Notes under the pieces: generated by a model
Databases searched by the model: none
What the model was told of the DNA's origin: nothing
Seen by the model: the letters and a program-made list of their open reading frames with translations, nothing else
Part shown: positions 3,038 to 41,392 of the stretch, in pieces
Layout: every line of letters begins with the position of its first letter
Position numbering within the stretch: the first letter of the stretch is position 1
Assembly (NCBI GenBank): GCA_964399215.1
Contig: CAYNPW010000002.1
Coordinates: 41,554-105,553, forward strand
DNA length: 64,000 nt
Reading direction: 5' to 3'
Source: an uncultured Ruminococcus sp.
GTDB lineage: Bacteria > Bacillota > Clostridia > Oscillospirales > Ruminococcaceae
Made by a program: the position numbers and the translations under genes

Positions 3038-3161
3038 AGCTTACATACGGAAATTGTTTTGGAGAAACGATTGACGAGAAAGAGAAAGATACGGGAAAAT
3101 GCCTCCTGACAGCGATATTCGGCGGATCAGGGGGTGTTTTGTATACAAAGGAGAACAATAT

Positions 3162-3590
3162 ATGGACGTACTTGTGGCTATAGTGATAATACTTTGTATA
3201 ATCAGCATTCCGCTGATTATTGTGGTGGGAATAAGCTGTCTGCCTTTTATTATACTGCTGGCGCTGTTTATACTGGGTATAAAAATGGTGATAAATCCTT
3301 GGTTCGCCAATCGTGAAAAATCACGGCTTGACGAGAACCACATACTTTTGATCCCGCAGAGGCAGGTAGTTCGAGTGGACGTGAATATGAACGTTAACGG
3401 TTATAATCCCTATGTTATCGACTGCTACTACACTGACGAAAATACGGGACGTGAGTTTGTGTTTACCAGCAAGCCGTTTATGACAGACCCCACTCCTTAT
3501 CTGAACGGAGTGACCTTGGGAGTGTTCGTGAATTCTGTGGATTACTCAAATTATTATGTTGACATAAGTAAGCTTCCGCCAAATCTGTAA
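3162..3590 (+). CDS. membrane protein, two N-terminal TM helices plus beta-rich C-terminal domain (DUF3592-like)
   Basis: The start was moved to ATG 3162, which follows AAAGGAGA. The hydrophobic N-terminus is MDVLVAIVIILCIISIPLIIVVGISCLPFIILLALFILG. The C-terminal motif TGREFVFTSKPF resembles the 17004..17636 product. Confidence 0.55.
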   Translation: MDVLVAIVIILCIISIPLIIVVGISCLPFIILLALFILGIKMVINPWFANREKSRLDENHILLIPQRQVVRVDVNMNVNGYNPYVIDCYYTDENTGREFVFTSKPFMTDPTPYLNGVTLGVFVNSVDYSNYYVDISKLPPNL

Positions 3591-3610
3591 TTAACCAAAA
3601 TCTCAAATAT

Positions 3611-3660
3611 CGCATAAAATGTATCAGCCCTGCAAGGTACATTTTATGCGATTTGTTTTT
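3611..3660 (+). terminator. rho-independent terminator
   Basis: A 13 bp perfect stem, CGCATAAAATGTA (3611..3623) pairing with TACATTTTATGCG (3638..3650), followed by ATTTGTTTTT. Confidence 0.8.
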
Positions 3661-3775
3661 ATGCGGTGATTATTTTTATGTAAAGCGGGAATAATAACCG
3701 CAGAGGAAAAAATCGCTAAAATATTCTGATCTGAAAAGAGCAGATCAGCGCAACAAAAGATAAGGAGTGTTTCAG

Positions 3776-4135
3776 GTGACAGTTCACAGAGGCGATATTT
3801 ACTATGCGGATCTGAGCCCCGTAGTAGGCTCGGAGCAGGGTGGTCTAAGACCCGTACTGATAGTACAGAACGATGTGGGCAACAAGCATTCGCCCACAGT
3901 AATAGCAGCTGCGATAACCAGTCAGCGTGAGAAAGCAAAGCTTCCCACACATATAGAGCTGGGAGGAGGTACCTGCGGTCTTGCCAAGGACTCGGTTGTA
4001 CTTCTCGAACAAATCCGTACATTAGACAAAAAGCGGCTCAGAGAGAAAATGGGTACCCTCGATGTAAGCTCAATGACAGCGGTGAACTCGGCATTATCAG
4101 TAAGCTTCGGACTTAACAGCAATACAAATGTCTGA
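3776..4135 (+). CDS. mazF: MazF/EndoA (PemK-family) mRNA interferase toxin
   Basis: [55 protein letters not shown] is near-colinear with B. subtilis EndoA. GTG 3776 lies 8 nt after AAGGAG and is preferred over the track start at 3767. Confidence 0.85.
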
Positions 4136-4188: not shown

Positions 4189-5337
4189 TTATGCAACGCT
4201 TGTATCGTCGCTCTGAGAACTGTCGCTGTCATCGCTGTTTTCATCATTTGTACCTACTGCTCCCGGCAGATAGTTCTCAAAAACAGCGATCGTGTCCTCA
4301 ACGGAAAGCAGCTCGTCCTTTGACTTTGCAGTTACACAGATATATTCCGTGCCCTCATATTCAATAATACTGGAAAGCGTGTAAAGAGCCTCGTCGGTAA
4401 AACCTGTTTTTCCTCCCAGTACTTCTGCGTCTCCTTCTCCGTCGCCGTCGGTATCGATCCAGTAGCCTAAATATCTTGTGTGGAAAATACTTGTAAGTTC
4501 AATACCGTCCTCGTGCTGTTCCGTCTTTGAGGTAGTATAGTCCGACGCTTCAAGAACCTCTCTGCAAATGTCGTTATCCAGACAAGCCTTAGTAATAGCG
4601 GCTATATCCTGAACAGTCGAGTAGTGATCCTCATCGTGAAGCCCGCTTGCATTTACAAAATGAGAAGAGGAAAGTCCCAGCTCTGTTAATTTAAGATTCA
4701 TAAGCTCGACAAAATTTTCCTCGGAACCGGCAACTCCCTTTGCAAGCCCCAATGTACCGTCTGCTCCGCTTACAAGAATTGACGCATAAAGCAGATCCTG
4801 CATGGTTACTTCTTCGTCAGCTTCAAAACCTGCACGTGAAGCGTTTTCTTCAATGAGAGGGTCAATATCGTCGCTTGTAAATTTGTATGTAGCGTCCATA
4901 TCCTCGATATTCTCGGCTGCGACCAGCAAAGTGAGCAGCTTTGTCAGCGATGCGGGATATATTTCCTTATCATACTTGTAACCTGCAATGATCTCGTTTG
5001 TGTCTGCATTGATCAGAACAGCGGATGCTGCAGTCATATCTTCAAGATCAATACTCTTGTAGGTATCAGAGATCTGAGGAAGTATTGACGGCTTTGTTTC
5101 GGGAATTTCCGCAAATGAAGAACTGTCGGGCGCCGATGACGAGCTTTCAGCCTCGGAACTTGAAACGTCATCATATCCCGGAGGAGGCGGAGCCTCTACC
5201 GTCTTGCTTGCCTGAATGCTGTTTCTGCCCGTAACAACCATAGCGGCAGAGCCTACTGCAACCAGCATTATAACTACGAGCACTGCGACAACAGCCGCAC
5301 CGCCCCTGCGGTTTGATCTTCTCATTTTTTCTACCAA
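4189..5337 (-). CDS. D-alanyl-D-alanine carboxypeptidase (peptidase S11, membrane anchored)
   Basis: N-terminal TM segment, SxxK motif (PASLTKLLT), KTG motif (GGKTGFT) and a Ser-rich linker. Confidence 0.8.
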   Translation of the reverse strand: MVEKMRRSNRRGGAAVVAVLVVIMLVAVGSAAMVVTGRNSIQASKTVEAPPPPGYDDVSSSEAESSSSAPDSSSFAEIPETKPSILPQISDTYKSIDLEDMTAASAVLINADTNEIIAGYKYDKEIYPASLTKLLTLLVAAENIEDMDATYKFTSDDIDPLIEENASRAGFEADEEVTMQDLLYASILVSGADGTLGLAKGVAGSEENFVELMNLKLTELGLSSSHFVNASGLHDEDHYSTVQDIAAITKACLDNDICREVLEASDYTTSKTEQHEDGIELTSIFHTRYLGYWIDTDGDGEGDAEVLGGKTGFTDEALYTLSSIIEYEGTEYICVTAKSKDELLSVEDTIAVFENYLPGAVGTNDENSDDSDSSQSDDTSVA

Positions 5338-5357
5338 TCCTTTCCGTGTGCGTTAAG

Positions 5358-5792
5358 TTAATTACATTCCTTTTGATTTTGAAATTCTTTTATTGTCTTA
5401 TAGCAGTATTGCAGAATATCTCTTCTGGTAACAATGCCAATAAAAACTTTTCTGTCGTCAACCACAGGCACAAAGTTCTGATCCATACTCAGCAGTATCA
5501 GATCCTCTATGGAGGAAGAAATATAAACAGGCTTTATCTCAGCTCGTCCGCTTATCTGACTTACAGAATACTTTTCCATTTCACGTATGTCGTAAATACC
5601 CTTATCGAGCATAAGGTGAAGGAAATCGCCCTCTGCGGCAGTTTTTATATATTCTCCCTTTCTGTTGATAACGGGAACTGCCGTAAATCTGTGGTTCCTG
5701 ATCTTTTCAAGAGCCTGTCTTGCCGTATAGTCATCATAGATGTAGTCAATACAGACCTTAGGCTTCAGCAGTTGAAGTATATTCATTTTCAA
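5358..5792 (-). CDS. stand-alone CBS-pair domain protein (CbpB/DarB-like size)
   Basis: 144 aa with two CBS-like repeats (FTAVPVINRKGEYI ... FVPVVDDRKVFIGIVTRRDI). It has the same size and layout as B. subtilis YkuL. Confidence 0.7.
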   Translation of the reverse strand: MKMNILQLLKPKVCIDYIYDDYTARQALEKIRNHRFTAVPVINRKGEYIKTAAEGDFLHLMLDKGIYDIREMEKYSVSQISGRAEIKPVYISSSIEDLILLSMDQNFVPVVDDRKVFIGIVTRRDILQYCYKTIKEFQNQKECN

Positions 5793-5813
5793 TATGTCCT
5801 TATAATATGTAAG

Positions 5814-6851
5814 TTAATTGTATCCGTAAAGATACACAAGAGCGGTAAATTCCTCATAGGAAATGGTCTTGAGCGATTCGTCGGTTATTTCTTCCTGCGC
5901 AAGCTCTTCGGGAGTAACTCCTGCAGTGACAAAAATAGCCTGACAATATCCGAGACGTCTTTCCTCAGTCATATTGTTGAAATCAACCAGAGTTTCAATA
6001 AAAGACGTGTCAAAAACGGACTTATCTATTTCCTGCGTCTCTGTTTCAGCTTCGGAAGAAGCTTCGGAAGAAATGTAATCGGTCCGACTGTCGGTCACAG
6101 AACTGTCTTGCGCAATGAACGAGCTGTCTGCGTCGGACGAAATATTTTCCGCAGGCTCAAAAGAAGGAATAAAATCGTAAAACTCTCTCGTTTCAGTGAT
6201 GTCGTCATCGCCCTCTACAGAATAAGTGGCGGTGTATTTGACCGGAGCCCCTGTGGACCTGTCAAAGCAGAAATCCAAAACAGTGATGTAGGTATCGCCC
6301 GTATAGGTATATTCCTCCACATCGTAAAGCGCGGCGTCCTCCTCGTTTATATGTGTGGAGGTCATAGGAAGATTTTCTTCTATGATGCTTTCTATAATGC
6401 TGTCGGGCCTTTCAGCGGAACTCTTACGGTAGATACCGCAGACCATATCAAAGTCGTAGCATTCCTCACCGACTCTGATACTGCCGCTTTCCCCGATGAC
6501 GTTTTTCTGCAGCTGATAAAAGTCATCTCCGTCAGCAACTCTGTAAATATCAGTAACATTGCCCTCATAATCCGTATATTTTATACGCAGACTGTAGCTT
6601 TCGCTGTTCAGAAAATCATATGTTTTTCTCAGAAGAGTATCGCTGTTATCCGTTTGACTGCTGTCATCGCTGTCGGCGGAACTGTTAGTATCATTATCGG
6701 AGGGGCTGTCGCTGTTGTCAGATTTATCAGCCTGACTAACAGCCGAATTTTTTGAACTGACGTCTTTATCCGAGCCGCTGTCCGAGCAAGCCGCACACAT
6801 CACAGCAATTAAAGCTGCGAAAAACGCCGCAGTAATTTTCAGACGTACCAT
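5814..6851 (-). CDS. lipoprotein of unknown function, acidic Ser/Asp-rich linker
   Basis: Signal peptide with lipobox (AVMCAACSD). No recognisable catalytic motif. Confidence 0.6.
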   Translation of the reverse strand: MVRLKITAAFFAALIAVMCAACSDSGSDKDVSSKNSAVSQADKSDNSDSPSDNDTNSSADSDDSSQTDNSDTLLRKTYDFLNSESYSLRIKYTDYEGNVTDIYRVADGDDFYQLQKNVIGESGSIRVGEECYDFDMVCGIYRKSSAERPDSIIESIIEENLPMTSTHINEEDAALYDVEEYTYTGDTYITVLDFCFDRSTGAPVKYTATYSVEGDDDITETREFYDFIPSFEPAENISSDADSSFIAQDSSVTDSRTDYISSEASSEAETETQEIDKSVFDTSFIETLVDFNNMTEERRLGYCQAIFVTAGVTPEELAQEEITDESLKTISYEEFTALVYLYGYN

Positions 6852-7015
6852 ATTACAATCCTTTCGGTATTACAAACTGCACAAACACATAATTATATAA
6901 TAAATAATTATACACCAGTGAAACGGTTATGTCAAGTGAAAAATTTTCATAAAAACGATTTGATGATCTCAGCGCGCATTTGCGCCGTTTATGATTATGT
7001 CAGTACGAAATGACA

Positions 7016-7654
7016 TTATTTTTTGCTTTTCTTTATTTTAGGACACAAATCATTAAGAGGACATACCGAGCATTTTTCGCCTCTTGCTTTGCAGTACTCA
7101 CGTCCGAACAGCACAAGTCTATGGCAGAAGTCCGAGGATTTATCCGAAGGAAGTATCTTTCTCAGATCCGTTTCAACCTTGACCGGTTCGGTATTTTTGG
7201 TCAGACCTAACCGTCCGCATATTCTGATACAGTGCGTATCGGTCACGACCGCAGGCTTATGGAAAACATCTCCCATAATAAGATTGGCGGTTTTGCGCCC
7301 TATACCCGCAAGCTTAGTAAGCTCTTCTATGCTGTCAGGGATTTCACCGCCGAAGTCGTCTCTTATCTGCCGGCACATGGTGACTATCGACAGGGCTTTG
7401 GTCTTGTAAAGTCCGCAGGGCTTAATGATTTCCGCTACATCGTCGACTTCTGCCGCTGCAAAGTCGTTTATGGTCTTGTATTTCGCAAAAAGGTCTTTTG
7501 TGACTATATTTACTCTGGCGTCGGTACACTGTGCCGACAGACGTCCCGCTATCATAAGCTCGTGGGGATTTTCATATGTAAGGGAGCATATGGCGTCGGG
7601 ATATTGTTCTTCCAGACGCTTTATAATCGCCGATGTTTTTTCTTTTTTAGTCAT
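7016..7654 (-). CDS. nth: endonuclease III
   Basis: HhH-GPD motif (LTKLAGIGRKTANLI) and a C-terminal 4Fe-4S cluster loop (C-x6-C-x2-C-x5-C: CKARGEKCSVCPLNDLC). Confidence 0.9.
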   Translation of the reverse strand: MTKKEKTSAIIKRLEEQYPDAICSLTYENPHELMIAGRLSAQCTDARVNIVTKDLFAKYKTINDFAAAEVDDVAEIIKPCGLYKTKALSIVTMCRQIRDDFGGEIPDSIEELTKLAGIGRKTANLIMGDVFHKPAVVTDTHCIRICGRLGLTKNTEPVKVETDLRKILPSDKSSDFCHRLVLFGREYCKARGEKCSVCPLNDLCPKIKKSKK

Positions 7655-8001
7655 AAAATTTCTCCTCTGATCTAAAATATTATCATTTGACTATAAGTAT
7701 ATCACAATTCGGCGGATTTCGCAAGTATATATCATTTATCACAGAAAATGCAGGATTTAAAATGCAAAAATTCATTTTTGACGCCGTTCGTGCAATATAA
7801 CGCCCGAACTCGTGATATAACGGAGGAAATTCATTGATCTTTATTTTTGAAAATTGTAAATTAAACCTATGAAATTTACACTTGCGCCATAAATTTTGGC
7901 TGATTTTATGAAATTTATTGGTCTTTTAGTGGCGTATTTCAAATTTTGTGCTCCATTTTTATATAATTTCCATAAAAATTTGAAATTTCTGCTCTCGGGA
8001 C

Positions 8002-8030
8002 TTGCAAAATCAAGAATAGTATGTTATAAT
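8002..8030 (+). promoter_or_regulatory. sigma-A-type promoter TTGCAA-17-TATAAT (extended TGT) for gdhA
   Basis: TTGCAA at 8002..8007 and TATAAT at 8025..8030, with a 17 nt spacer. Confidence 0.5.
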
Positions 8031-8086
8031 GTATTGCGTAAGGTAAAGTGGACGGCAAGGTTCACACATTTACATTAAAATCATAA

Positions 8087-10690: not shown

Positions 10691-11036
10691 GTGAGCAGGC
10701 TGTACGGTAGCGTGAACGTTAATGTTTATGAGGAAAGTCCGAGCATCGCAGAGCAGGATAGCTGATAACGTCAGCCGAGGGCGACCTCCGAGCAAGTGCA
10801 GCAGAGATATACCGCCGGAATTTTCCGGTAAGGGTGGAAAGGCGGGGTAAGAGCCCACCGGAGCGTCAGAGATGACGCTGCCATGTAAACCTTATCCGAT
10901 GCAACACCAATGGTAGCCGAAAAGTCAATGGCTGCTCGTCAGACTTCAGGCTATAGGTGGCTAGAGCCGTATGGCGACATACGGAGTAGATAGATTACCG
11001 TACTCGACAAAACTCGGCTTACAGGCAGGCTCACTT
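10691..11036 (+). ncRNA. rnpB: RNase P RNA (bacterial)
   Basis: Universal elements are present: GAGGAAAGTCCGAGC, AGGGTGGAAAGGCGGGGTAAGAGCCCACCGG and ACAAAACTCGGCTTACAG. The 5' GTGAGC pairs with the 3' GCTCAC as P1. Ends are approximate. Confidence 0.9.
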
Positions 11037-11047
11037 TACATGAAAAT

Positions 11048-13333: not shown

Positions 13334-13362
13334 TCATACAGATATAAATTTAATATAATTAC

Positions 13363-13636
13363 AAGCTGTGATGAGGAGAGTAATCCGATAGAGCGGTTTA
13401 ACGGCAGTGCTTTGTACAGCCGTCAGCGAGAGCCGAACGGTGAGAGGGCTTGACTGTGAAACGGACGAAGGACACCTCTGAGCTTCCGCCTGACAAAGGG
13501 CGGACGTATTTTCTGCGTTAAGGATTTCGAGTGACTTCGGATAGCTTACGGGCATATGGTTGAGCTTTTTGAGGTAATTAGGGTGGTAACACGGTTATAT
13601 CAGTCGTCCCTTTGTCGGGGCGGCTGTTTTTATTTT
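13363..13636 (+). promoter_or_regulatory. T-box riboswitch leader, specifier most likely GAC (Asp)
   Basis: Stem I elements: GA/K-turn (UGAUGA...UGAG), AGAGUA, AG bulge AGCGAGAG and distal loop GGUGAGAG. The specifier loop reads ...GAAG GAC A directly before the helix CCUC (GAC = 13471..13473). F-box-like GCGUUA is present. The T-box sequence AAUUAGGGUGGUAACACGG is at 13576..13594. The terminator is CAGUCGUCCC/GGGGCGGCUG (13601..13626) plus a U-run. Confidence 0.88.
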
Positions 13637-13649
13637 TGGAAGGTGTATT

Positions 13650-14687
13650 ATGAAAAAGCTTATAAAACCTCATAGCTTAAAAAAAGGTGATAAGGTTGCC
13701 GCAGTAAGCCTGTCGTGGGGCGGAGCAGGCGAGCCCGAGCTTCGCTGGCGGTATGAACAGGGAAAAAAGCGTTTGCAGGAGGTATTCGGGTTAGAGGTCG
13801 TGGAAATGCCCCACACTCTCAGCGGAGATGCTTATCTTCGCGCTCACCCTGAAAAACGTGCCGATGATTTAATGGCGGCATTTTCAGATACGTCGGTTAA
13901 GGGCATTTTCAGTTGTATAGGCGGAGACGACACTGTTCGCTTGCTGCCGTACATAGATTTTAATGTGATAAGGGAAAATCCCAAGGTTTTTATAGGATAT
14001 TCCGATACTACCGTAAATCATTTTATGATGTATAAGGCGGGGCTGACTTCTTTTTACGGCGCAGGAATTTTGCCCGATTTTGCCGAAAATGTCTGTATGC
14101 ACGATTATACAGTCCATTGGATAAACAAAACTCTTTTTGACAATAAGCCTCTCGGGGATATTCCTGCGTCTGACGAGTACGTCTGTCAGTACCTTGAATG
14201 GACGGAGGAAAACAAGAATATAAAACGTCAGACTTCTCCCAACGCAGGTTATGAGATATTGCAGGGCAAAGGCAGGGTCAAAGGACATCTGATAGGCGGC
14301 TGTATTGAAGTCCTTGAAATGTTAAAGGGCACAGAGCTGTTTCCTCCTCTTGAAGATTTTGACGGAGCGATACTTTTTTTGGAAACCAGCGAATGCAGTC
14401 CGAAGCCTGAGTATATAAAATGGTGGCTGATGAATTACGGCGCAATGGGAGTACTCGACAGGATAAACGCGATCATTTTCGGTAAGCCCGCCTATGGAGA
14501 ATATTACAATGAATATAAGACCGAGATAAAAACAATTCTTGCCGAATACGGCAGAGCCGATCTGCCTGTTATGTATAACGCAAGCTTCGGTCACAACGAG
14601 CCGAAATGCTGTCTGCCCTACGGAGCACTTGCTGAGATTGACTGCGGGAACAAAACTTTTTCTGTTCTTGAATCGGGCTGTGTTTAA
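13650..14687 (+). CDS. peptidase S66 family protein (MccF / LD-carboxypeptidase-like serine hydrolase)
   Basis: 345 aa. N-terminal LKKGDKVAAVSLS, then IFSCIGGDD, the nucleophile motif FIGYSDTT, and C-terminal FGHNEP (His). The length class is that of MccF-like members. Confidence 0.8.
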   Translation: MKKLIKPHSLKKGDKVAAVSLSWGGAGEPELRWRYEQGKKRLQEVFGLEVVEMPHTLSGDAYLRAHPEKRADDLMAAFSDTSVKGIFSCIGGDDTVRLLPYIDFNVIRENPKVFIGYSDTTVNHFMMYKAGLTSFYGAGILPDFAENVCMHDYTVHWINKTLFDNKPLGDIPASDEYVCQYLEWTEENKNIKRQTSPNAGYEILQGKGRVKGHLIGGCIEVLEMLKGTELFPPLEDFDGAILFLETSECSPKPEYIKWWLMNYGAMGVLDRINAIIFGKPAYGEYYNEYKTEIKTILAEYGRADLPVMYNASFGHNEPKCCLPYGALAEIDCGNKTFSVLESGCV

Positions 14688-14704: not shown

Positions 14705-14733
14705 TTGACGAATGTATGAAATTCGGTTATTAT
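14705..14733 (+). promoter_or_regulatory. candidate internal promoter TTGACG-17-TATTAT in front of hisS
   Basis: TTGACG at 14705..14710 and TATTAT at 14728..14733, with a 17 nt spacer, in the 99 nt gap between the S66 gene and hisS. Confidence 0.45.
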
Positions 14734-14786: not shown

Positions 14787-16115
14787 ATGGCATTGATAAC
14801 ACAAAGACCAAAGGGTACTAACGACGTTGTTCCAGCGCAGGCTTATAAATGGCACACCGTTGAAAAGCTTGTTGCCGAAACGGCGGAGCAGTACGGCTTT
14901 AAGGAGATAAGAGTTCCTACCTTTGAGGATACGGGACTTTTCGTCCGTTCGGTAGGAGAGACTACCGACGTTGTGCAGAAGGAAATGTATTCCGTTACCG
15001 CCGCAGGAGACGCTAAGTTTACTCTGCGCCCCGAGGGTACGGCAGGCACCATGAGAGCTATGCTTGAAAACGGCATTATGAACGAGGGATTTCCTCAGAA
15101 AGCGTACTACATTTTGTCCTGCTTCAGACACGAAAAGCCGCAGGCAGGACGTCTGAGAGAGTTCCACCAGTTCGGCTGTGAAATGGTAGGTACTGCAAGC
15201 CCGAGAGCGGATGCGGAGGTCATCTCCCTTGCGAAAAACGTTCTGGACAGAGTGGGTCTGAAAAATATTCAGCTCAATATCAATTCTATCGGCTGTCCGA
15301 CCTGCCGCGCTGAGTACCACAAGGCGTTAAAGGAGTATTTCTCAGCCAAGCAGGAGGATATGTGCGATACCTGCAAGGGCAGGCTTGAGAAAAATCCTAT
15401 GAGGATCCTTGACTGCAAGTCTCCGATATGTCAGGGTATCGCCAAGGACGCTCCGCTTATTCTTGACTATCTTTGTAACGAATGCAGGGAGCATTTTGAA
15501 CAGTTACAGAAAAATCTGTCGGTAATGGGTATAGAATTTGAAATAAATCCGAAGATCGTAAGAGGACTTGACTACTACACAAGAACCGTTTTTGAGTTCT
15601 TCACAACGGACATAGGCGCGCAGGGTACAGTCTGCGGAGGCGGACGCTACGACGGACTTATCGAGCAGTTAGGCGGACAGAAAACTCCTGCTCTGGGTTT
15701 TGGTATGGGACTTGAAAGACTTATCCTCACCATGGAAAAGCAGGGCTGCGATTTTATGGAGGCTAAAACCTGCGATCTCTACATTGCATCAATGGGCGAA
15801 ACTGCCGCTGACAGGGCTATGGCGCTTGCTATGGAGCTGCGCGACGAGGGATATTTTGTTGAGTACGATCTGGTAGGCAGAGGTATCAAGCCGCAAATGA
15901 AATATGCGGATAAGATAGGCTCAAAATTTGTTCTTGTTCTGGGCGACAATGAGATCGAGACAGGCGAGGCAAAGCTTAAAAATATGGCGACGGGAGAACA
16001 GACTGACATAAAGCTTGATAACAGCTTTATAGACTGCTTCTCGAATTCTCTCGTAACGGAAATGTTCAAAGGTCTTGACGACGAAATGGCAGGACTTTTA
16101 GGCTCAGATAAGTAG
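14787..16115 (+). CDS. hisS: histidine--tRNA ligase
   Basis: 442 aa with class II motifs (RPKGTND, YSVTAAGD..LRPEGT, FRHEKPQAGRLREFHQFG, GGGRYDGL). Confidence 0.95.
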   Translation: MALITQRPKGTNDVVPAQAYKWHTVEKLVAETAEQYGFKEIRVPTFEDTGLFVRSVGETTDVVQKEMYSVTAAGDAKFTLRPEGTAGTMRAMLENGIMNEGFPQKAYYILSCFRHEKPQAGRLREFHQFGCEMVGTASPRADAEVISLAKNVLDRVGLKNIQLNINSIGCPTCRAEYHKALKEYFSAKQEDMCDTCKGRLEKNPMRILDCKSPICQGIAKDAPLILDYLCNECREHFEQLQKNLSVMGIEFEINPKIVRGLDYYTRTVFEFFTTDIGAQGTVCGGGRYDGLIEQLGGQKTPALGFGMGLERLILTMEKQGCDFMEAKTCDLYIASMGETAADRAMALAMELRDEGYFVEYDLVGRGIKPQMKYADKIGSKFVLVLGDNEIETGEAKLKNMATGEQTDIKLDNSFIDCFSNSLVTEMFKGLDDEMAGLLGSDK

Positions 16116-16125
16116 GAGGAATATT

Positions 16126-16458
16126 ATGGGACTTTATTGTGAAACCTGTAAGATCATTCCCGAGGCGGAAATACCCGACAAGGCGAATTATTTTATAGCA
16201 ATGAAAACGCTGACAGCAATGGTAAATGCAGGCGATATGGAGCTTGTATACGCAAGCTGTCCGTTGGATAATATCTTTGACGAAAAGCAGCAGTTCAGAG
16301 CGCAGAAGTATTTTCATCAGGTAAGATGCAAAGACTGCGGAATGATCTTCGGCGTGTTCTACAACACAAAGGCGGGAGGACAGATAAAAATCAATTCCAA
16401 GATATTTGATCCTGACGACTATTCATTCCTTGACAAGGGAAAAGAGGGTGAGCGGTAA
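16126..16458 (+). CDS. hypothetical Cys-rich (CxxC...CxxC) small protein
   Basis: 110 aa. AGGAGG RBS 5 nt upstream. CETC near the N-terminus and CKDC at about residue 68 suggest a zinc ribbon. The stop overlaps the next start (TAATG). Confidence 0.55.
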   Translation: MGLYCETCKIIPEAEIPDKANYFIAMKTLTAMVNAGDMELVYASCPLDNIFDEKQQFRAQKYFHQVRCKDCGMIFGVFYNTKAGGQIKINSKIFDPDDYSFLDKGKEGER

Positions 16459-16976
16459 TGCTCCCCATATTCCCGAAAAGATACAGCTTTGAGACCCGAC
16501 TTGCTCCCAAAAAGCTCATAAGAAAAATACAGGGAGACCTTGTGGAATACCGTCCAACAATGAATATACTTTCAACAGGCAGGTTTATGAAGAAGTATAA
16601 GCTGGAAAGCGTATACTACGGCAGACACGACGGAAATAGTTTTGAACTGTACTATCACAGAATGAAAAAGCGCGACGGCGGTTCTACGGGATTTTACGGA
16701 AAGATCATCGAGACCGAAAAAGGTACGCTGATAAAGGGCTGGTTCAGAAAGCCTGTGTACGCATATGTCTTTGCGGTCTGCTTTGCTCTGGTGTGCTTAG
16801 TCTGCGCCGTAGGAGCATACGCAGCGCAAGCTGTAACGGGAGCGTATGTTTTTCTTGGACTGGGGCTTGCGGGAGCTTTGCTTTTGCTGTGGGATAACAA
16901 TGAAATATATCTCAGAGCGTATCTTGACGAGCTTAAAGACAGCGGAAAAGAGGGGAAAACTGAACTGAACCGCTGA
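16458..16976 (+). CDS. hypothetical membrane protein (soluble N-domain, two C-terminal TM helices)
   Basis: 172 aa, translationally coupled to the previous ORF. The hydrophobic stretch is VYAYVFAVCFALVCLVCAVGAYAAQAVTGAYVFLGLGLAGALLLLW. Confidence 0.5.
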   Translation: MLPIFPKRYSFETRLAPKKLIRKIQGDLVEYRPTMNILSTGRFMKKYKLESVYYGRHDGNSFELYYHRMKKRDGGSTGFYGKIIETEKGTLIKGWFRKPVYAYVFAVCFALVCLVCAVGAYAAQAVTGAYVFLGLGLAGALLLLWDNNEIYLRAYLDELKDSGKEGKTELNR

Positions 16977-17003
16977 ACTAAACCTATAAAGGAATGATAA
17001 TAA

Positions 17004-17636
17004 ATGCAAAAACCGAAAGGCGGATTTATTTCGTTTATTGTATTCATACTGTTTGCAATAGTTTTGCCGTATTCGATTTTTACGGGCGGAGACAGCTCAG
17101 ATGAATATGAGCAGAGAGGACAGCTTGTGCATTGTACGGTGACCTCCGTGTCTCAAATGGGAAAGCGGCAGTATGTGCAGGGAATATACAGAGATGAAAA
17201 TGATAATCTTATTACTGCGGATATAACCGCCAACAAGCTGGTATCGCTGAGCGATGAATTGGACGGTTACGTCCTGCCTGAAAAGCCCGACAAGGTTTAC
17301 TGTCCTGCTGGTAACGGACTAAAACTGGCGGTATACATATTCGGCGGGTTCTTTGCTCTCATGGGTTGGGGAATCATAATTTTCCAGATTTCAATTCGCC
17401 GAAAGCATCGTTTGCTGTTCAAAAAGGGAATACCCGGCAGAGCGGAAATAGTGGAAAATCCTCAGAAGTGCGGTGATAATTACTCGTCAAAAATGCGGTT
17501 TGTAACCAATGACGGTCGGGAGTTTACAAAGGAATTTGTTTTTACAAAGCATGTTCCTTATCCCGGAAATCAGTATTCCATAGTGTATTATGTCAAGAAA
17601 AACGGCAAATGTATTGCCGATGTTATAGAGCTTTAA
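17004..17636 (+). CDS. membrane protein with two TM-plus-beta-domain modules (DUF3592-like)
   Basis: 210 aa with an AAAGGAA RBS. TM at residues 8-27 and about 110-130. The second domain contains DGREFTKEFVFTKHVPYPG, similar to the 3162..3590 product. Confidence 0.55.
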   Translation: MQKPKGGFISFIVFILFAIVLPYSIFTGGDSSDEYEQRGQLVHCTVTSVSQMGKRQYVQGIYRDENDNLITADITANKLVSLSDELDGYVLPEKPDKVYCPAGNGLKLAVYIFGGFFALMGWGIIIFQISIRRKHRLLFKKGIPGRAEIVENPQKCGDNYSSKMRFVTNDGREFTKEFVFTKHVPYPGNQYSIVYYVKKNGKCIADVIEL

Positions 17637-17661: not shown

Positions 17662-19431
17662 ATGAAACTTGATACAATGAAAGGACTTCGCAGGACACAT
17701 TACTGCGGAGAGGTTCCCGAAACAGAACAGGAAGTCGTAGTATGCGGCTTTGCGGACAGGGTAAGGGATATGGGAAACCTCATCTTTATCAACCTGAGAG
17801 ACAGAACCGGACTTGTTCAGCTTGCTTTCAACGACGAAACTGACAGGGACATTTTTGAAAAGGCGCGGGCTGTAAAAAGCGAATATGTTCTTATGGCAAA
17901 GGGTCAGATACGTCCCCGTGAGAGCGTTAACAATAAGCTTAAAACAGGTAAGATAGAAATTGCCGTAAACGAGCTGAGAATTCTTTCAAGAGCGGAGACT
18001 ACGCCTTTTGAGGTCACAAATTCCGATAAGGTAAACGAGGAATTAAAGCTGAAATACCGCTATCTCGATCTTAGAAATCCCAGACTTCAGAAGAATATTA
18101 TGATGAGACACATGATCGCAAAGTCTGCAAGGGATTATTTCTATGAGAACGGTTTCCTTGAGATAGAAACTCCTATGATGATGAAGTCCACTCCCGAGGG
18201 TGCGAGAGACTACCTTGTGCCGTCGAGAGTTCATCAGGGAAAGTTTTACGCTTTGCCCCAGTCTCCTCAGATATATAAGCAGCTTCTGATGATCTCGGGC
18301 TATGACAGATATGTCCAGCTTGCAAGATGTTTCAGAGACGAGGATCTGAGAGCGGACAGACAGCCTGAGTTCACTCAGATAGACCTTGAGATGTCCTTTG
18401 TGGACGTTGACGACCTGCTTGAAATAGGCGAGGGACTTGTCCATAGGCTTTTCAAGGACGTGCTTGGCGTTGAAATTCCTCTGCCCCTGCCCAGAATGAC
18501 CTTTGCGGACGCTATGAACAAATACGGCTCGGACAAGCCGGACACCCGTTTCGGCATGGAGATTCAGGACATTTCCGACGTTGTAAAGGACATTGATTTT
18601 GTTGTATTCAAGTCCGCTCTGGAAAACGGCGGATCGGTCCGCGCGATCGTTGCGAAGGGCGGAGCGCAGACCTACACGAGAAAAGAGATCGACAAGCTTA
18701 CCGAACACGCAAAGGGTATAGGTGCAAAGGGACTTGCGTATATCCGCTGGGCTGACGAGCCTAACTGCTCTTTCAAAAAGTTTTTGGGAGAGGGCGATCT
18801 GGAGAAGATAACCTCCGCTGTGGGTGCAGAGAAAGGCGACCTTGTTCTTATCTGCGCAGACAAAAACAAGACTGTACTGAGCGTTCTGGGCGCGCTGAGA
18901 CTTATTTGCGGCAAGAGACTTGATATGATTAAGGAGGGCTACAACTTCCTGTGGATAACCGAAATGCCTTTCTTTGAAAAGGACGACGAAACAGGGGAGT
19001 ACATTGCGGCTCATCACCCCTTTACAATGCCTATGGAGGAATGCATAGAGTATCTTGACAGCGATCCCGACAAGGTAAAGGCAAAGGCGTTCGATCTTGT
19101 GCTTAACGGTACGGAGCTGTCCTCGGGTTCAATGAGAATTACAGATTTTGAGTTACAGCAGAAGATGTTCGAGGCGCTGGGAATGTCCGACGAGGAGATA
19201 GATGCTAAGTTCGGCTTCCTTGTAGACGCTTACCGCTATGCGGCTCCTCCTCACGGCGGAATGGGCATAGGTCTTGACAGAATTTCAATGATTATGTGCG
19301 GAGCCGAGTCACTGAGAGACGTTGTGGCGTTCCCAAAGGTGCAGAATGCCGGCGAGCTTATGAGCGCGTGTCCGTCAACCGTTGACGAGAAACAGCTTGA
19401 AGAACTGCATATAAAGACAGTAGGGGAATAA
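17662..19431 (+). CDS. aspS: aspartate--tRNA ligase
   Basis: 589 aa with class IIb motifs (FINLRDRTG, LPQSPQ, FRDEDLRADRQPEFTQID, GGMGIGLDR). Confidence 0.95.
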   Translation: MKLDTMKGLRRTHYCGEVPETEQEVVVCGFADRVRDMGNLIFINLRDRTGLVQLAFNDETDRDIFEKARAVKSEYVLMAKGQIRPRESVNNKLKTGKIEIAVNELRILSRAETTPFEVTNSDKVNEELKLKYRYLDLRNPRLQKNIMMRHMIAKSARDYFYENGFLEIETPMMMKSTPEGARDYLVPSRVHQGKFYALPQSPQIYKQLLMISGYDRYVQLARCFRDEDLRADRQPEFTQIDLEMSFVDVDDLLEIGEGLVHRLFKDVLGVEIPLPLPRMTFADAMNKYGSDKPDTRFGMEIQDISDVVKDIDFVVFKSALENGGSVRAIVAKGGAQTYTRKEIDKLTEHAKGIGAKGLAYIRWADEPNCSFKKFLGEGDLEKITSAVGAEKGDLVLICADKNKTVLSVLGALRLICGKRLDMIKEGYNFLWITEMPFFEKDDETGEYIAAHHPFTMPMEECIEYLDSDPDKVKAKAFDLVLNGTELSSGSMRITDFELQQKMFEALGMSDEEIDAKFGFLVDAYRYAAPPHGGMGIGLDRISMIMCGAESLRDVVAFPKVQNAGELMSACPSTVDEKQLEELHIKTVGE

Positions 19432-19435
19432 TTTT

Positions 19436-19951
19436 ATGCTGAAACTGCGACCGTATAAAGCCTGCGATGCACAGACGATAACAAAGTGGCTGAAAGATGA
19501 AAAGGCTTTCAGATTGTGGAGCGCAGACCGCTATGACAAGTTTCCTGTCACGTCCGATGATATGAACGAGTACTATGACAGAGATAAGCACAACGGAAAT
19601 ATCTGGGGAATGACAGCGTATAATGACAGCGGGATAGTCGGGCATTTCACAATGAGATACCCCGACGGCGTAAGAAACGAGATCAGACTGGGATTTGTTA
19701 TCGTTGACGACAGTAAGCGCAAGCTGGGCTGCGGTAAGGAGATGATCTCTATGGCTGTACGCTATGCATTTGATTTCCTGAAAGCGGATAAGGTCACACT
19801 TGGAGTATTTGAGAATAATATTCCTGCAATAAAATGCTATGAGTCCTGCGGATTTGAAAAGGTGACTTTGGAAAAAACGGAAAGATACGAATGTATGGGC
19901 GAAACATGGAACTGTATCGAAATGCAAATAATGAGAAATAAAAATCATTAG
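19436..19951 (+). CDS. GNAT family N-acetyltransferase (RimJ/RimL-like layout)
   Basis: 171 aa. LKLRPY..CDA..I..W N-terminus. Acetyl-CoA motif region RLGFVIVDDSKRKLGCGKEMISMAVRYAF and NIPAIKCYESCGFEKV. The start is 4 nt after the aspS stop. Confidence 0.8.
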   Translation: MLKLRPYKACDAQTITKWLKDEKAFRLWSADRYDKFPVTSDDMNEYYDRDKHNGNIWGMTAYNDSGIVGHFTMRYPDGVRNEIRLGFVIVDDSKRKLGCGKEMISMAVRYAFDFLKADKVTLGVFENNIPAIKCYESCGFEKVTLEKTERYECMGETWNCIEMQIMRNKNH

Positions 19952-20088: not shown

Positions 20089-20939
20089 ATGACAATAGGC
20101 GAACAGATACAGAATATCCGTATTCAGAAAGGCTTAACGCAGGAACGGCTTGCGGAAATGCTGGAGGTCTCAAGGCAGTCCGTATCAAAATGGGAGCTTG
20201 GACAGGCTGTGCCCGACGTGGATAAAATTATCCGTATGAGCGAGCTGTTCAACGTTTCAACGGATACGCTTTTATTACGCAATGCCGAAGAGGAGAAGGT
20301 CAACAAAAATCCGCTGCATTTGGGGAGCGTTTACCTTGTGGTCAAAGATTTTGAAAAGTCTGTGGAGTTTTATGAAAAATTTCTCGGAGCAAAGGTTGAC
20401 AACCGCTGCCGCAGCGGAAATAAGTTTGTGAAATTCTACATTGACAGTAAATGCATTGCCCTTATGAATGAGAATAACATTATCGGACATTGCACAGACC
20501 TGAACGTCCGTACAAGTTTGTGCAGAATTACTGGGTAGAGGACCTGCTGACGGAGTACGAACGTGTAAAGGCTCTGAATATAGGCAAGGTAACGGAAATT
20601 CTGGAGGCGTATCCCACGTATCACTATTTTCACCTGACCGATCCTGACAACAATATTATCGAGGTCACAGGAGGTTATCACATGGACGCTAACGTATGTC
20701 AAAGCTGCGGAATGAAAATGCAGACGGGAGATTTCGGCACAAATGCAGACGGCGGAGAAAACAGGGAGTACTGCAAATACTGTTTTGAAAACGGAACATT
20801 TTTAGGCGCGCAGACCCTTGAGGAAAAAATCGAAAGCAACATCAGATTTTGGGTCGATGAACAGAACGGAATAACCGAGGAAATGGCAAGGCAGAAGCTC
20901 CGCGAATTTTTCCCTACTCTTAAACGCTGGAAAAAGTAA
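20089..20939 (+). pseudogene. frameshifted XRE-HTH / VOC (glyoxalase-fold) / zinc-ribbon protein
   Basis: Two overlapping ORFs (20089..20538 and 20490..20939) are in different frames. The VOC domain starts in the first (LGSVYLVVKDFEKSVEFYEKFLG) and continues in the second (YWVEDLLTEYERVKAL..HLTDPDNNIIEVTG). The shift must lie between 20478 and 20538, and there is no homopolymer there. Confidence 0.6.
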
Positions 20940-40040: not shown

Positions 40041-41174
40041 ATGCGTCTCTACGCTCCTGATATATTCACCGATTTCATCTGTTCGGGCTCGGAATGCAGG
40101 GACAACTGCTGTACTATAGGCTGGGATATTGAAATTGACTATAAAACGTTGGCTTTTTATAAGTCCCTTGACAGCGATTTAGGTAAAAGGCTTGCGGCTA
40201 ATATCTATGAGGAGGACGGCTGTCATTATATGCGGCAGGAGGGAGGCTGTCCGTTTATGAACGAAAACGGACTTTGCTCCGTTCAGCTTGAATACGGCGA
40301 GGAGCATATTTCAGACATCTGCCGAGAACACCCACGCTTTTATGAGTGGTTCGGAGACTACAAGGAGGCGGGCGTCGGACTTAGCTGTGAAAAAGCCGCT
40401 CAGATGTTGGTGGAGCATACTTCTCCGATCTTGTTTACGGAACGTCAGACCGACGAAGAACCAGACGATCTGGAGTTTGACGAAAAGCTTCTGAATGCTG
40501 TAAAAAAGCTCCGCGACAGACTTATTGACATTCTCCAGAATAGGGGATATTCGGTTAAGGAACGGCTTGGCATTCTTTTGTGTGCCTGCGATGATATTCA
40601 GCAGGCAGTTGATACGGAGGACTGCGGCAGACTTAAACAGCTTTCGGGAATGCTTGCGATAGAAGGATTTCTGCTTGAAATTGTCAGCGAGGCTGAGTGT
40701 GATAAATCCGTAAAAAAATCGGAGGCTTATGAAAGTCTGCTGGAGATCTTTATGCAAATGGAGTATATTCGCCCCGAGCTGAATGAAAAATTCGGATATA
40801 TAAAGGACAATATCGGCAGCATACTGTCCGCAGAAAAACAGTTTGATAAATCCTACGGCGACGATCAGTTTGAGCTGGAGCATATTGCAGTTTATTTCAT
40901 TTATCGCTATCTGATCAAGGCGGTCAGGGATTTTGACATAGAGGGACGAATTTATTCTGCTGTAATATGTACTATGATGATAAGACTGCTCTTTATGGCT
41001 GAATTTTATAAAAAAGGAGGACTTATCGACAAGGAGAGCCGTGCTTTGCTGATAAAGGAGTTTTCAAAGGAGATCGAGTACTCCGCTGAAAATATGGAAA
41101 TGCTGTACAGCTTCATATATGAGGACGGTATGTTGTTTGAAAAACTGAAAACCGTTATTTTCGGGGAGGTATGA
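40041..41174 (+). CDS. FliB-family (flagellin lysine-N-methylase-like) Cys-rich protein
   Basis: The N-terminal motif FICSGSECRDNCCTIGWDIEID plus GGCPFMNENGLCSVQ and ICREHPR match the CxxxCxxxCC..W.I.ID pattern I associate with FliB. Confidence 0.55.
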   Translation: MRLYAPDIFTDFICSGSECRDNCCTIGWDIEIDYKTLAFYKSLDSDLGKRLAANIYEEDGCHYMRQEGGCPFMNENGLCSVQLEYGEEHISDICREHPRFYEWFGDYKEAGVGLSCEKAAQMLVEHTSPILFTERQTDEEPDDLEFDEKLLNAVKKLRDRLIDILQNRGYSVKERLGILLCACDDIQQAVDTEDCGRLKQLSGMLAIEGFLLEIVSEAECDKSVKKSEAYESLLEIFMQMEYIRPELNEKFGYIKDNIGSILSAEKQFDKSYGDDQFELEHIAVYFIYRYLIKAVRDFDIEGRIYSAVICTMMIRLLFMAEFYKKGGLIDKESRALLIKEFSKEIEYSAENMEMLYSFIYEDGMLFEKLKTVIFGEV

Positions 41175-41392
41175 AAATGGGTGTTTTCACAAAAAACGTT
41201 GGAGGATCGGTCCCCTCCGAGTGTAAGGGTATGGAAGTAAAAATGCAGACCTCAGTCTGTACAGGTGAAAAAATCATTGGATTTTATAACAGAAATACCC
41301 GTGAGCTTATGTATTCCGAGCTTGTGAAAAGTCCGAGAGATATTCAAGAATTTTATAAAAAATACGGTATAAAACAGGAAAATAAGAATTAA
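41171..41392 (+). CDS. small conserved hypothetical protein
   Basis: The start overlaps the upstream stop (ATGA). The core MQTSVCTGEKIIGFYNRNTRELMYSELVKSPRDIQEFYKKYGI resembles a short Firmicute protein family of unknown function. The real start may be the internal MEVKMQ. Confidence 0.45.
   Translation: MKMGVFTKNVGGSVPSECKGMEVKMQTSVCTGEKIIGFYNRNTRELMYSELVKSPRDIQEFYKKYGIKQENKN

Follow-up and report, generated by a model that had tools for sequence, protein, structure and literature searches.

An S66 peptidase gene of the MccF clade behind a hisS-aspS-type T-box leader in one Ruminococcus lineage

In Bacillota, hisS-aspS operons are controlled by T-box leaders (PMC5313534; see also PMC4342826). 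The specifier loop of these leaders characteristically contains GACAC, a leader type reported by Gutierrez-Preciado et al. (2009, as cited in PMC5313534), and this sequence is thought to contact mainly tRNA-Asp (PMC5313534). T-boxes also control genes that do not encode synthetases, including amino-acid biosynthesis and transporter genes, and some are known to precede operons for peptidases and peptide transporters, such as the His T-box of Lactobacillus parabuchneri (PMC5313534). Within peptidase family S66, which includes the murein tetrapeptide LD-carboxypeptidase LdcA, stand-alone homologues of MccF can protect against microcin C (PMC8323819). Here, we analysed 64,000 nucleotides of an uncultured Ruminococcus sp. 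(contig CAYNPW010000002.1 of assembly GCA_964399215.1, positions 41,554 to 105,553), referred to below as the window, in which a T-box leader is followed by a gene for an S66 serine peptidase and then by hisS and aspS. The leader shares with the hisS-aspS leaders of Bacillota its full T-box architecture, the GACAC sequence and the presence of hisS and then aspS downstream. It differs from them in the S66 gene and a promoter-like element that lie between the terminator and hisS, in three small open reading frames (ORFs) between hisS and aspS, and in an extra hairpin in Stem I. As with other non-synthetase genes under T-box control, a T-box gates a gene that encodes no synthetase, but here this gene is an insertion in a synthetase operon and has no evident link to the supply of the cognate amino acid. 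The reading that we favour, with a probability of roughly 0.6, is that the leader is a canonical tRNA-Asp-responsive GACAC attenuator of the hisS-aspS operon, and that an accessory gene was captured between its terminator and hisS in one lineage. The wiring of leader and S66 gene is real, and it is restricted to one Ruminococcus lineage. It is also unreported: the first-pass annotation, made from the letters of the window alone, had taken it to be undescribed, and our literature search found no paper that combined a T-box with MccF, S66 or LdcA.

A complete T-box leader, a terminator that competes with the antiterminator and a GAC specifier had all been read from the sequence in that annotation, and our analyses agree on all three, down to the positions of the motifs. 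When the whole window was scanned against Rfam, two matches reached the gathering level, one of which is the T-box leader at 13359-13614 (like all window features given below, on the (+) strand). It matches RF00230 with 95.6 bits (E 1e-19) over model positions 1-219, which is the full model, and comprises Stem I, a Stem II-like hairpin, Stem III and the antiterminator. The AGAGUA motif lies at 13377-13382 and the GCGUUA motif at 13515-13520. The T-box sequence, AAUUAGGGUGGUAACACGG (13576-13594), is seen in the sequence, the covariance model and the leader alignment alike; it contains the UGGU bulge for pairing with the 3' end of the tRNA. At the variable base of this UGGN bulge, most leaders have U and locus L133 has C. 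Both terminator prediction and folding place an intrinsic terminator behind it, with a 10-bp stem at 13601-13626 and a T-run to 13637. Its hairpin has a folding free energy of -17.9 kcal/mol (z -4.75), none of 200 shuffled sequences was as stable, and the stem shows compensatory changes in the leader alignment. In the covariance-model alignment, the 3' arm of the antiterminator (CGUCCCU, 13605-13611) overlaps the 5' arm of the terminator (13601-13610). The two structures are mutually exclusive, as is required of a T-box.

The RF00230 score of the window leader is close to the gathering cut-off of 93 bits. It is borderline because a self-folding hairpin of 23 nt, identified by leader alignment and folding, is inserted in the 5' strand of Stem I (13400-13424). 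This insertion folds alone with -10.9 kcal/mol (z -3.0). It is unique to the window among the 14 leaders compared, and is absent from four contigs of sister strains (L001, L164, L167 and L168). Sister leaders without it score about 119 bits (118.6 in L001), and orthologous leaders at nine related loci score 98-122 bits. When ten orthologous leaders were aligned, compensatory changes were found at 19 of 34 consensus pairs. As single-sequence minimum free energy folding did not reproduce the canonical fold of Stem I, the anatomy given here rests on the covariance-model alignment together with this covariation.

The covariance model also fixes the register of the specifier loop. The 3' strand of this loop (13467-13475) reads GAAG-GAC-A(C), with GAC at 13471-13473 in the codon columns, a purine at 13474, and an overlapping CAC at 13473-13475. 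The GAAG-GAC-A stretch (13467-13474) directly adjoins the CCUC helix (GAAG-GAC-A|CCUC, 13467-13478), and the Stem I helices on either side have compensatory changes among the ten orthologous leaders. Two unrelated T-boxes provided controls for the register: the identical model columns hold AUC before ilvA and AAC before asnS. The sequence AAGGACAC is invariant in the ten aligned orthologous leaders. In the sister contigs L167 and L168 the specifier loop carries GACG, so that GAC and the following purine are kept while CAC is destroyed. With GACAC at 13471-13475 and hisS and then aspS downstream, the leader belongs to the GACAC subclass of hisS-aspS leaders, with the S66 gene interposed. The overlapping CAC made tRNA-His a candidate for the main reading of the leader, and this is ruled out by the covariance-model register, by GACG in two sister strains and by the U/C variation at the UGGN base. 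U or C at this position fits the G73 discriminator of tRNA-Asp and not the C73 of tRNA-His. We sought tRNA genes in the window and in 42 related loci to check the discriminator base, and found none there.

As the first-pass annotation stated, the first gene behind the terminator encodes an S66 peptidase of 345 amino acids (13650-14687), a call that both the ORF and the two S66 Pfam domains (N- and C-terminal) confirm. The ORF begins 12 nt past the T-run and has the ribosome-binding site GGAAGGTG at 13638-13645. The statement that the regulated gene is not a synthetase holds for this first gene only. It fails for the unit as a whole, in which hisS (histidine--tRNA ligase, 14787-16115; TIGR00442, 512 bits) and aspS (aspartate--tRNA ligase of the bacterial type with a GAD domain, 17662-19431; NF001750, 802 bits) follow and had been overlooked. 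Between them lie three unannotated ORFs (orf110, orf172 and orf210; 16126-17636), and a gene for a GNAT acetyltransferase (19436-19951; Pfam Acetyltransf_3) starts 4 nt after aspS. From hisS to the GNAT gene, all are on the strand of the leader with short gaps, and no terminator is predicted before about 20948. The spacer between the S66 gene and hisS is 99 nt long in the window and contains no predicted terminator. As hisS and aspS lie downstream of a leader of the GACAC type (PMC5313534), this is an ordinary hisS-aspS leader and not a new Asp sensor for a peptidase. It is orthologous to leaders that lie directly before hisS in related Ruminococcus, which does not support the earlier idea of a T-box dedicated to the peptidase.

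In our favoured reading, charged tRNA-Asp would leave the hairpin at 13601-13626 free to terminate transcription. Uncharged tRNA-Asp would pair through its anticodon with GAC at 13471-13473 and, at the UGGU bulge, through its 3' end. The antiterminator would thereby be stabilised and RNA polymerase could enter the S66 gene, with read-through predicted to continue into hisS, orf110, orf172, orf210, aspS and the GNAT gene. The S66 gene is thus very likely expressed when tRNA-Asp is uncharged, by a regulation that would have been inherited from the synthetase operon rather than evolved for the peptidase.

The synthetases probably have a further source of transcription. A promoter scan called an element TTGACG-17-TATTAT upstream of hisS (14705-14733, 10 of 12 matches), and the form TTGAC(G/T)-17-TATTAT is also found, with a partly conserved spacer, between the T-box terminator and hisS in L084 (about 5912-5940) and L089, two related loci without an intervening gene. 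It occurs in the sister strains as well (9183-9211 in L164). The conservation of this element suggests that hisS and aspS are probably also transcribed independently of the T-box, and the operon is perhaps only partly T-box-dependent. The S66 gene, which appears to be inserted between the T-box terminator and this probable hisS-proximal promoter, would then be the gene that depends most strictly on T-box read-through. For the leader itself, we read a candidate -10 box (TATAAT, 13354-13359) from the sequence; its -35 box is weak and the promoter scan did not call it. No terminator lies between the mgsA stop codon (13333) and the leader, which may instead be transcribed by read-through from the minD-like gene and mgsA.

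To place the S66 gene in an evolutionary context, we compared eighty metagenomic loci with close relatives of HisS. The common order at these loci is minD-like gene, mgsA, leader, a slot of variable content, hisS, (orf110, orf172) and aspS, and the T-box motif and hisS are separated by a distance that changes stepwise with the content of the slot. The slot is empty in L084, L089, L133 and L159. It contains a DUF218 protein gene at about 28 loci, which probably represent few species, a GNAT gene in L130 and L131, a gene for a SnoaL-like protein in L128 and one for a DUF3592 membrane protein in L125. Accessory genes in the slot were located at 5263-5856 in L085, 5282-5878 in L087, 2546-3127 in L082, 3804-4301 in L125, 304-690 in L128, 5379-5918 in L130 and 5552-5983 in L131. 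An S66 gene occupies the slot in the window lineage only, which comprises the window together with six sister contigs (L001 and L164-L168) that come from different samples and have the order leader, S66, hisS. The leader is not universal either. The T-box is missing altogether from more distant relatives. L087 has mgsA, 66 nt (about 5216-5282), DUF218 and hisS with no T-box, and in L082 the DUF218 gene is followed by about 790 nt (3128-3913) that contain no convincing ORF and no T-box reaching the Rfam threshold. In some relatives, the leader has been lost or replaced. The slot behind the hisS-aspS T-box terminator thus appears to have received insertions repeatedly in a single genus. Between the window and the sister clade, the ratio of nonsynonymous to synonymous substitutions (dN/dS) of the S66 gene is 0.07-0.09 at a dS of 0.66-0.84, next to 0.04-0.05 for hisS. 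This low dN/dS at such a dS indicates that the insertion is not recent and that the gene has been maintained. In a base-composition check for horizontal transfer, the GC content was 0.454 for the S66 gene and 0.431 for the window.

Next, we focused on the peptidase, for which the first-pass annotation had named placement in the MccF or the LdcA clade as a check. The protein contains the motifs GYSDTT and FGHNEP, and its closest solved relatives in a search of the PDB are four entries of Bacillus anthracis Ba3275 (453 bits), followed by MccF-family proteins (97-205 bits) and LdcA (28-66 bits). Structure gives the same order. An AlphaFold2 model (predicted local distance difference test score 91.3) compared by Foldseek has template-modelling (TM) scores of 0.97 to Ba3275 (5f9m/5f5x), 0.83-0.87 to MccF proteins and 0.65-0.70 to LdcA. 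The protein scores 63.5 bits against the LdcA equivalog NF008424, of which the cut-off is 378 bits. The peptidase therefore belongs to the MccF clade and not with LdcA, and within this clade to the BA_3275 subfamily. With Ba3275 (PDB 5F9M, 5F5X, 5F1Y and 5JYB), an uncharacterised MccF-family protein for which we found no published biochemical function in the literature searched, it shares 58% identity. With the LdcA enzymes of E. coli and P. aeruginosa, it shares the S66 family and the catalytic triad; LdcA differs in that it lacks the nucleotide-recognition loop of about 30 residues. E. coli MccF (PDB 3TLA/3TLC) has the same S66 fold (TM 0.85), the triad and the inserted loop with an adenine-stacking tryptophan; the window protein differs from it in its low identity (28%), in three pocket residues, in lying outside any mcc cluster and in its position behind predicted riboswitch control.

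These correspondences were read from an alignment to the authentic E. coli MccF, encoded by a plasmid mcc operon, and E. coli LdcA, on which MAFFT and hhalign agree. The catalytic residues S118, E245 and H315 of the window protein correspond to S118, E243 and H311 of MccF, and the Ser-His-Glu triad is invariant in 22 subfamily members. The adenylate-binding loop, the presence of which had been a further check, was found: W184 corresponds to W186 of E. coli MccF, the tryptophan that stacks on adenine (PMC8323819), and the loop that bears it is gapped in E. coli LdcA. The title of PDB entry 5F5X, 'S116A Ba3275 with AMP bound', describes a close homologue with a nucleotide. The peptidase is thus a serine amidase, MccF-like in fold and probably also in nucleotide recognition, and we infer that it most likely binds a substrate linked to an adenine nucleotide.

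The acyl side of the pocket differs. The residues of the S1 pocket of MccF that presumably select an acidic side chain (N220, R246 and K247) are not matched in the window protein, which has E220, E248 and C249. Across the subfamily, E220 is found in 21 of 22 members, E248 in 22 of 22, and aspartate or glutamate at position 249 in 20 of 22. Ba3275 and the window protein share the signature E220, E248 and W184; position 249 is acidic in Ba3275 and cysteine in the window protein. In E. coli MccF, N220 and K247 presumably bind the side-chain carboxylate of aspartate, a role reportedly described by Agarwal et al. in 2012; what we could confirm is that both residues were mutated. They were mutated together (N220A/K247A), as given in the title of PDB entry 3TLY. 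A pocket charge opposite to that of MccF argues against aspartyl- or glutamyl-adenylate, and the substrate is probably neither. The aspartyl-adenylate mimic that the first-pass annotation had in mind is therefore unlikely as a substrate.

The best of the alternatives holds that the T-box senses the inhibition of a target. In this scenario, a microcin C-type inhibitor of AspRS would raise the level of uncharged tRNA-Asp, and the T-box would respond by inducing an MccF-type hydrolase together with more AspRS. The Asp specifier agrees with this, as do the tight gating of the S66 gene, the tightest in the unit, its retention in the slot under purifying selection, and the position of aspS downstream of the same leader, by which enzyme and target would rise together. 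The MccF-clade placement, the triad, the tryptophan loop and the homologue crystallised with AMP are also in line with it, as is the protection that stand-alone MccF homologues can confer (PMC8323819). However, the charge of the pocket is reversed, with aspartate or glutamate at position 249 in relatives, the leader is ancestral to the hisS-aspS operon, and unrelated cargo genes occupy its slot in relatives. The window also lacks mcc-like genes: E. coli MccB, MccC, MccD and MccE gave no homologues there by tblastn, which rules out a microcin-C-like biosynthetic cluster in it. The GNAT encoded after aspS was considered as an MccE-type partner and rejected, with a BLASTP E-value of 0.1 against E. 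coli MccE, no MccE or RimL among its PDB matches, and AAC(6') as the best PDB match; the slot GNAT of L130 and L131 was rejected for its lack of similarity to MccE.

A survey of T-box-S66 synteny in related genomes had been named as a check. We examined 80 S66 orthologues (57-64% identical) from other Clostridia and Bacilli (L002-L081, with the S66 gene at about 7001-8035), using a regular-expression scan and an nhmmer profile, and checked the candidates by Rfam and Pfam. None of the 80 orthologues lies behind a T-box, and none has hisS or aspS within 7 kb. The scans gave four T-box candidates over the 80 loci, all of which belong to ilvA, asnS or serS. A T-box is found within a few kb at only three loci, each time that of another gene: ilvA (Ile), asnS (Asn) or serS. 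In L031 (Alkaliphilus hydrothermalis, 4471-8032), a T-box with AAC and asnS lies 0.8 kb upstream of the S66 gene with two strong terminators in between, and in L062 (3486-6375), the S66 orthologue directly precedes a T-box-serS unit and a tRNA cluster. A rough estimate puts the number expected by chance at about this level of three in 80. Over the 80 loci, T-box-S66 synteny thus does not recur in other taxa, and only one Ruminococcus lineage has the linkage. The Ba3275 subfamily shows no T-box or aminoacyl-tRNA synthetase context at the 80 loci, including L079 from the Bacillus cereus group.

The neighbours of the S66 genes at these 80 loci are heterogeneous, with scattered genes for small-molecule-modifying proteins, and no pattern of aminoacyl-tRNA synthetase, peptide-transporter or peptidoglycan-recycling genes recurs among them. 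GNAT genes are the most common direct neighbours, on the downstream side in about 9 of 72 cases and on the upstream side in about 6 of 76, well above the expectation for a random gene. This pattern is suggestive of neighbourhoods of an accessory or xenobiotic type, though it is not specific. Agrocin 84 is a nucleotide antibiotic that targets LeuRS. The agrocin 84 plasmid, pAgK84 (NC_006277.2, Agrobacterium radiobacter K84), encodes an S66 peptidase at 40415-41386 that is 27% identical to the window protein.

Together, the reversed charge of the pocket, the restriction to one lineage and the unrelated genes in the slot elsewhere weaken the reading as a detoxification system, which is possible but weakly supported, and we regard target-inhibition sensing as unlikely. 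Also unlikely, to about the same degree, is its broader form, in which the T-box is a sensor of AspRS inhibition co-opted for an MccF-clade hydrolase against an aminoacyl-nucleotide antibiotic, with a boost of AspRS, as an inducible resistance circuit, and the slot is a landing pad for accessory stress or resistance genes (S66, GNAT, DUF218 and others) under the control of tRNA charging.

A second alternative is nutritional salvage, in which limitation for an amino acid would induce, through the T-box, a carboxypeptidase acting on peptides, muropeptides or peptidyl conjugates to free their amino acids. The peptidase operon of L. parabuchneri provides a precedent, and murein LD-carboxypeptidases do belong to family S66. 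Against this, the protein scores far under the LdcA equivalog threshold and its structure groups with MccF and not LdcA, an acidic S1 pocket is ill-suited to the release of aspartate, and peptide-transporter and peptidoglycan-recycling genes do not recur as neighbours over the 80 loci. We consider this reading improbable. Least probable of all is a decaying or bypassed riboswitch, in which the window leader would no longer sense tRNA and the S66 gene would be expressed at a constitutive leak level. The borderline score, a Stem I insertion seen in none of the other leaders compared, the conserved promoter-like element ahead of hisS and the absence of the T-box from more distant relatives speak for it. 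Against it, the conserved motifs, specifier, antiterminator and strong terminator are all intact, the insertion is a self-contained hairpin, and sister strains with the S66 gene have an uninterrupted leader.

Several observations weigh against our own reading of a captured accessory gene under an inherited hisS-aspS attenuator. The Stem I insertion might impair tRNA binding in the window strain. The purifying selection on the S66 gene, and its retention over a dS of about 0.7 at a site where it would be off unless tRNA-Asp is uncharged, suggest that the linkage may bring a benefit rather than simply being tolerated. The over-representation of GNAT genes beside the S66 subfamily recalls the pair MccE and MccF, by which analogy an antibiotic-related role is possible. 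Co-transcription of the S66 gene with hisS and aspS, which we infer from strand, spacing and terminator prediction, is made less certain by the sister strains. These have an additional stretch of about 125-145 nt after the S66 stop codon (L164 9039-9182, L167 4524-4700, L168 2337-2480) with long purine- or pyrimidine-rich inverted repeats and a weak terminator-like hairpin (9120-9134 in L164). GTGAAGA-type repeats are found at the equivalent place in L160, and the stretch could represent a repeat or a small mobile element. Finally, the pocket argument depends on the sequence alignment to E. coli MccF and on the presumed roles of N220 and K247.

The remaining genes of the unit are more variable than the synthetases. 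orf110 (110 amino acids) is cysteine-rich with a CxxC...CxxC pattern, and orf172 and orf210 (172 and 210 amino acids) are membrane proteins by hydropathy; searches of Pfam and NCBIfam gave no match for any of the three. The products of orf110 and orf172 are only 38-56% identical in close relatives, against 75-90% for HisS and AspS, and orf210 is present, truncated or absent in the sister strains. The GNAT gene after aspS is likewise a variable accessory gene, in the place of which L164 and L165 have a gene for a 136-amino-acid unknown protein. Further downstream, two overlapping ORFs of 149 amino acids each (20089-20538 and 20490-20939) together represent a regulator with HTH_3 and glyoxalase domains, which is a single gene of 283 amino acids in L164 and L167. 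The split is likely a frameshift, through either a pseudogene or an assembly error. The other gathering-level match of the Rfam scan is a full-length class A bacterial RNase P RNA (10692-11037, 257.5 bits), 2.3 kb upstream of the T-box leader.

If uncharged tRNA-Asp does induce the peptidase, a riboswitch that reports the inhibition of a synthetase would drive a candidate antibiotic-degrading enzyme. We found no description of such resistance logic for T-boxes in the literature searched. Even in the conservative reading, accessory genes of a single genus can be inserted in the short stretch that separates a T-box terminator from its synthetase gene. For the Ba3275 subfamily, which is large and functionally uncharacterised although structures have been solved, the analysis provides a prediction: its substrate would be nucleotide-linked, with an acyl group that is non-acidic and probably basic.

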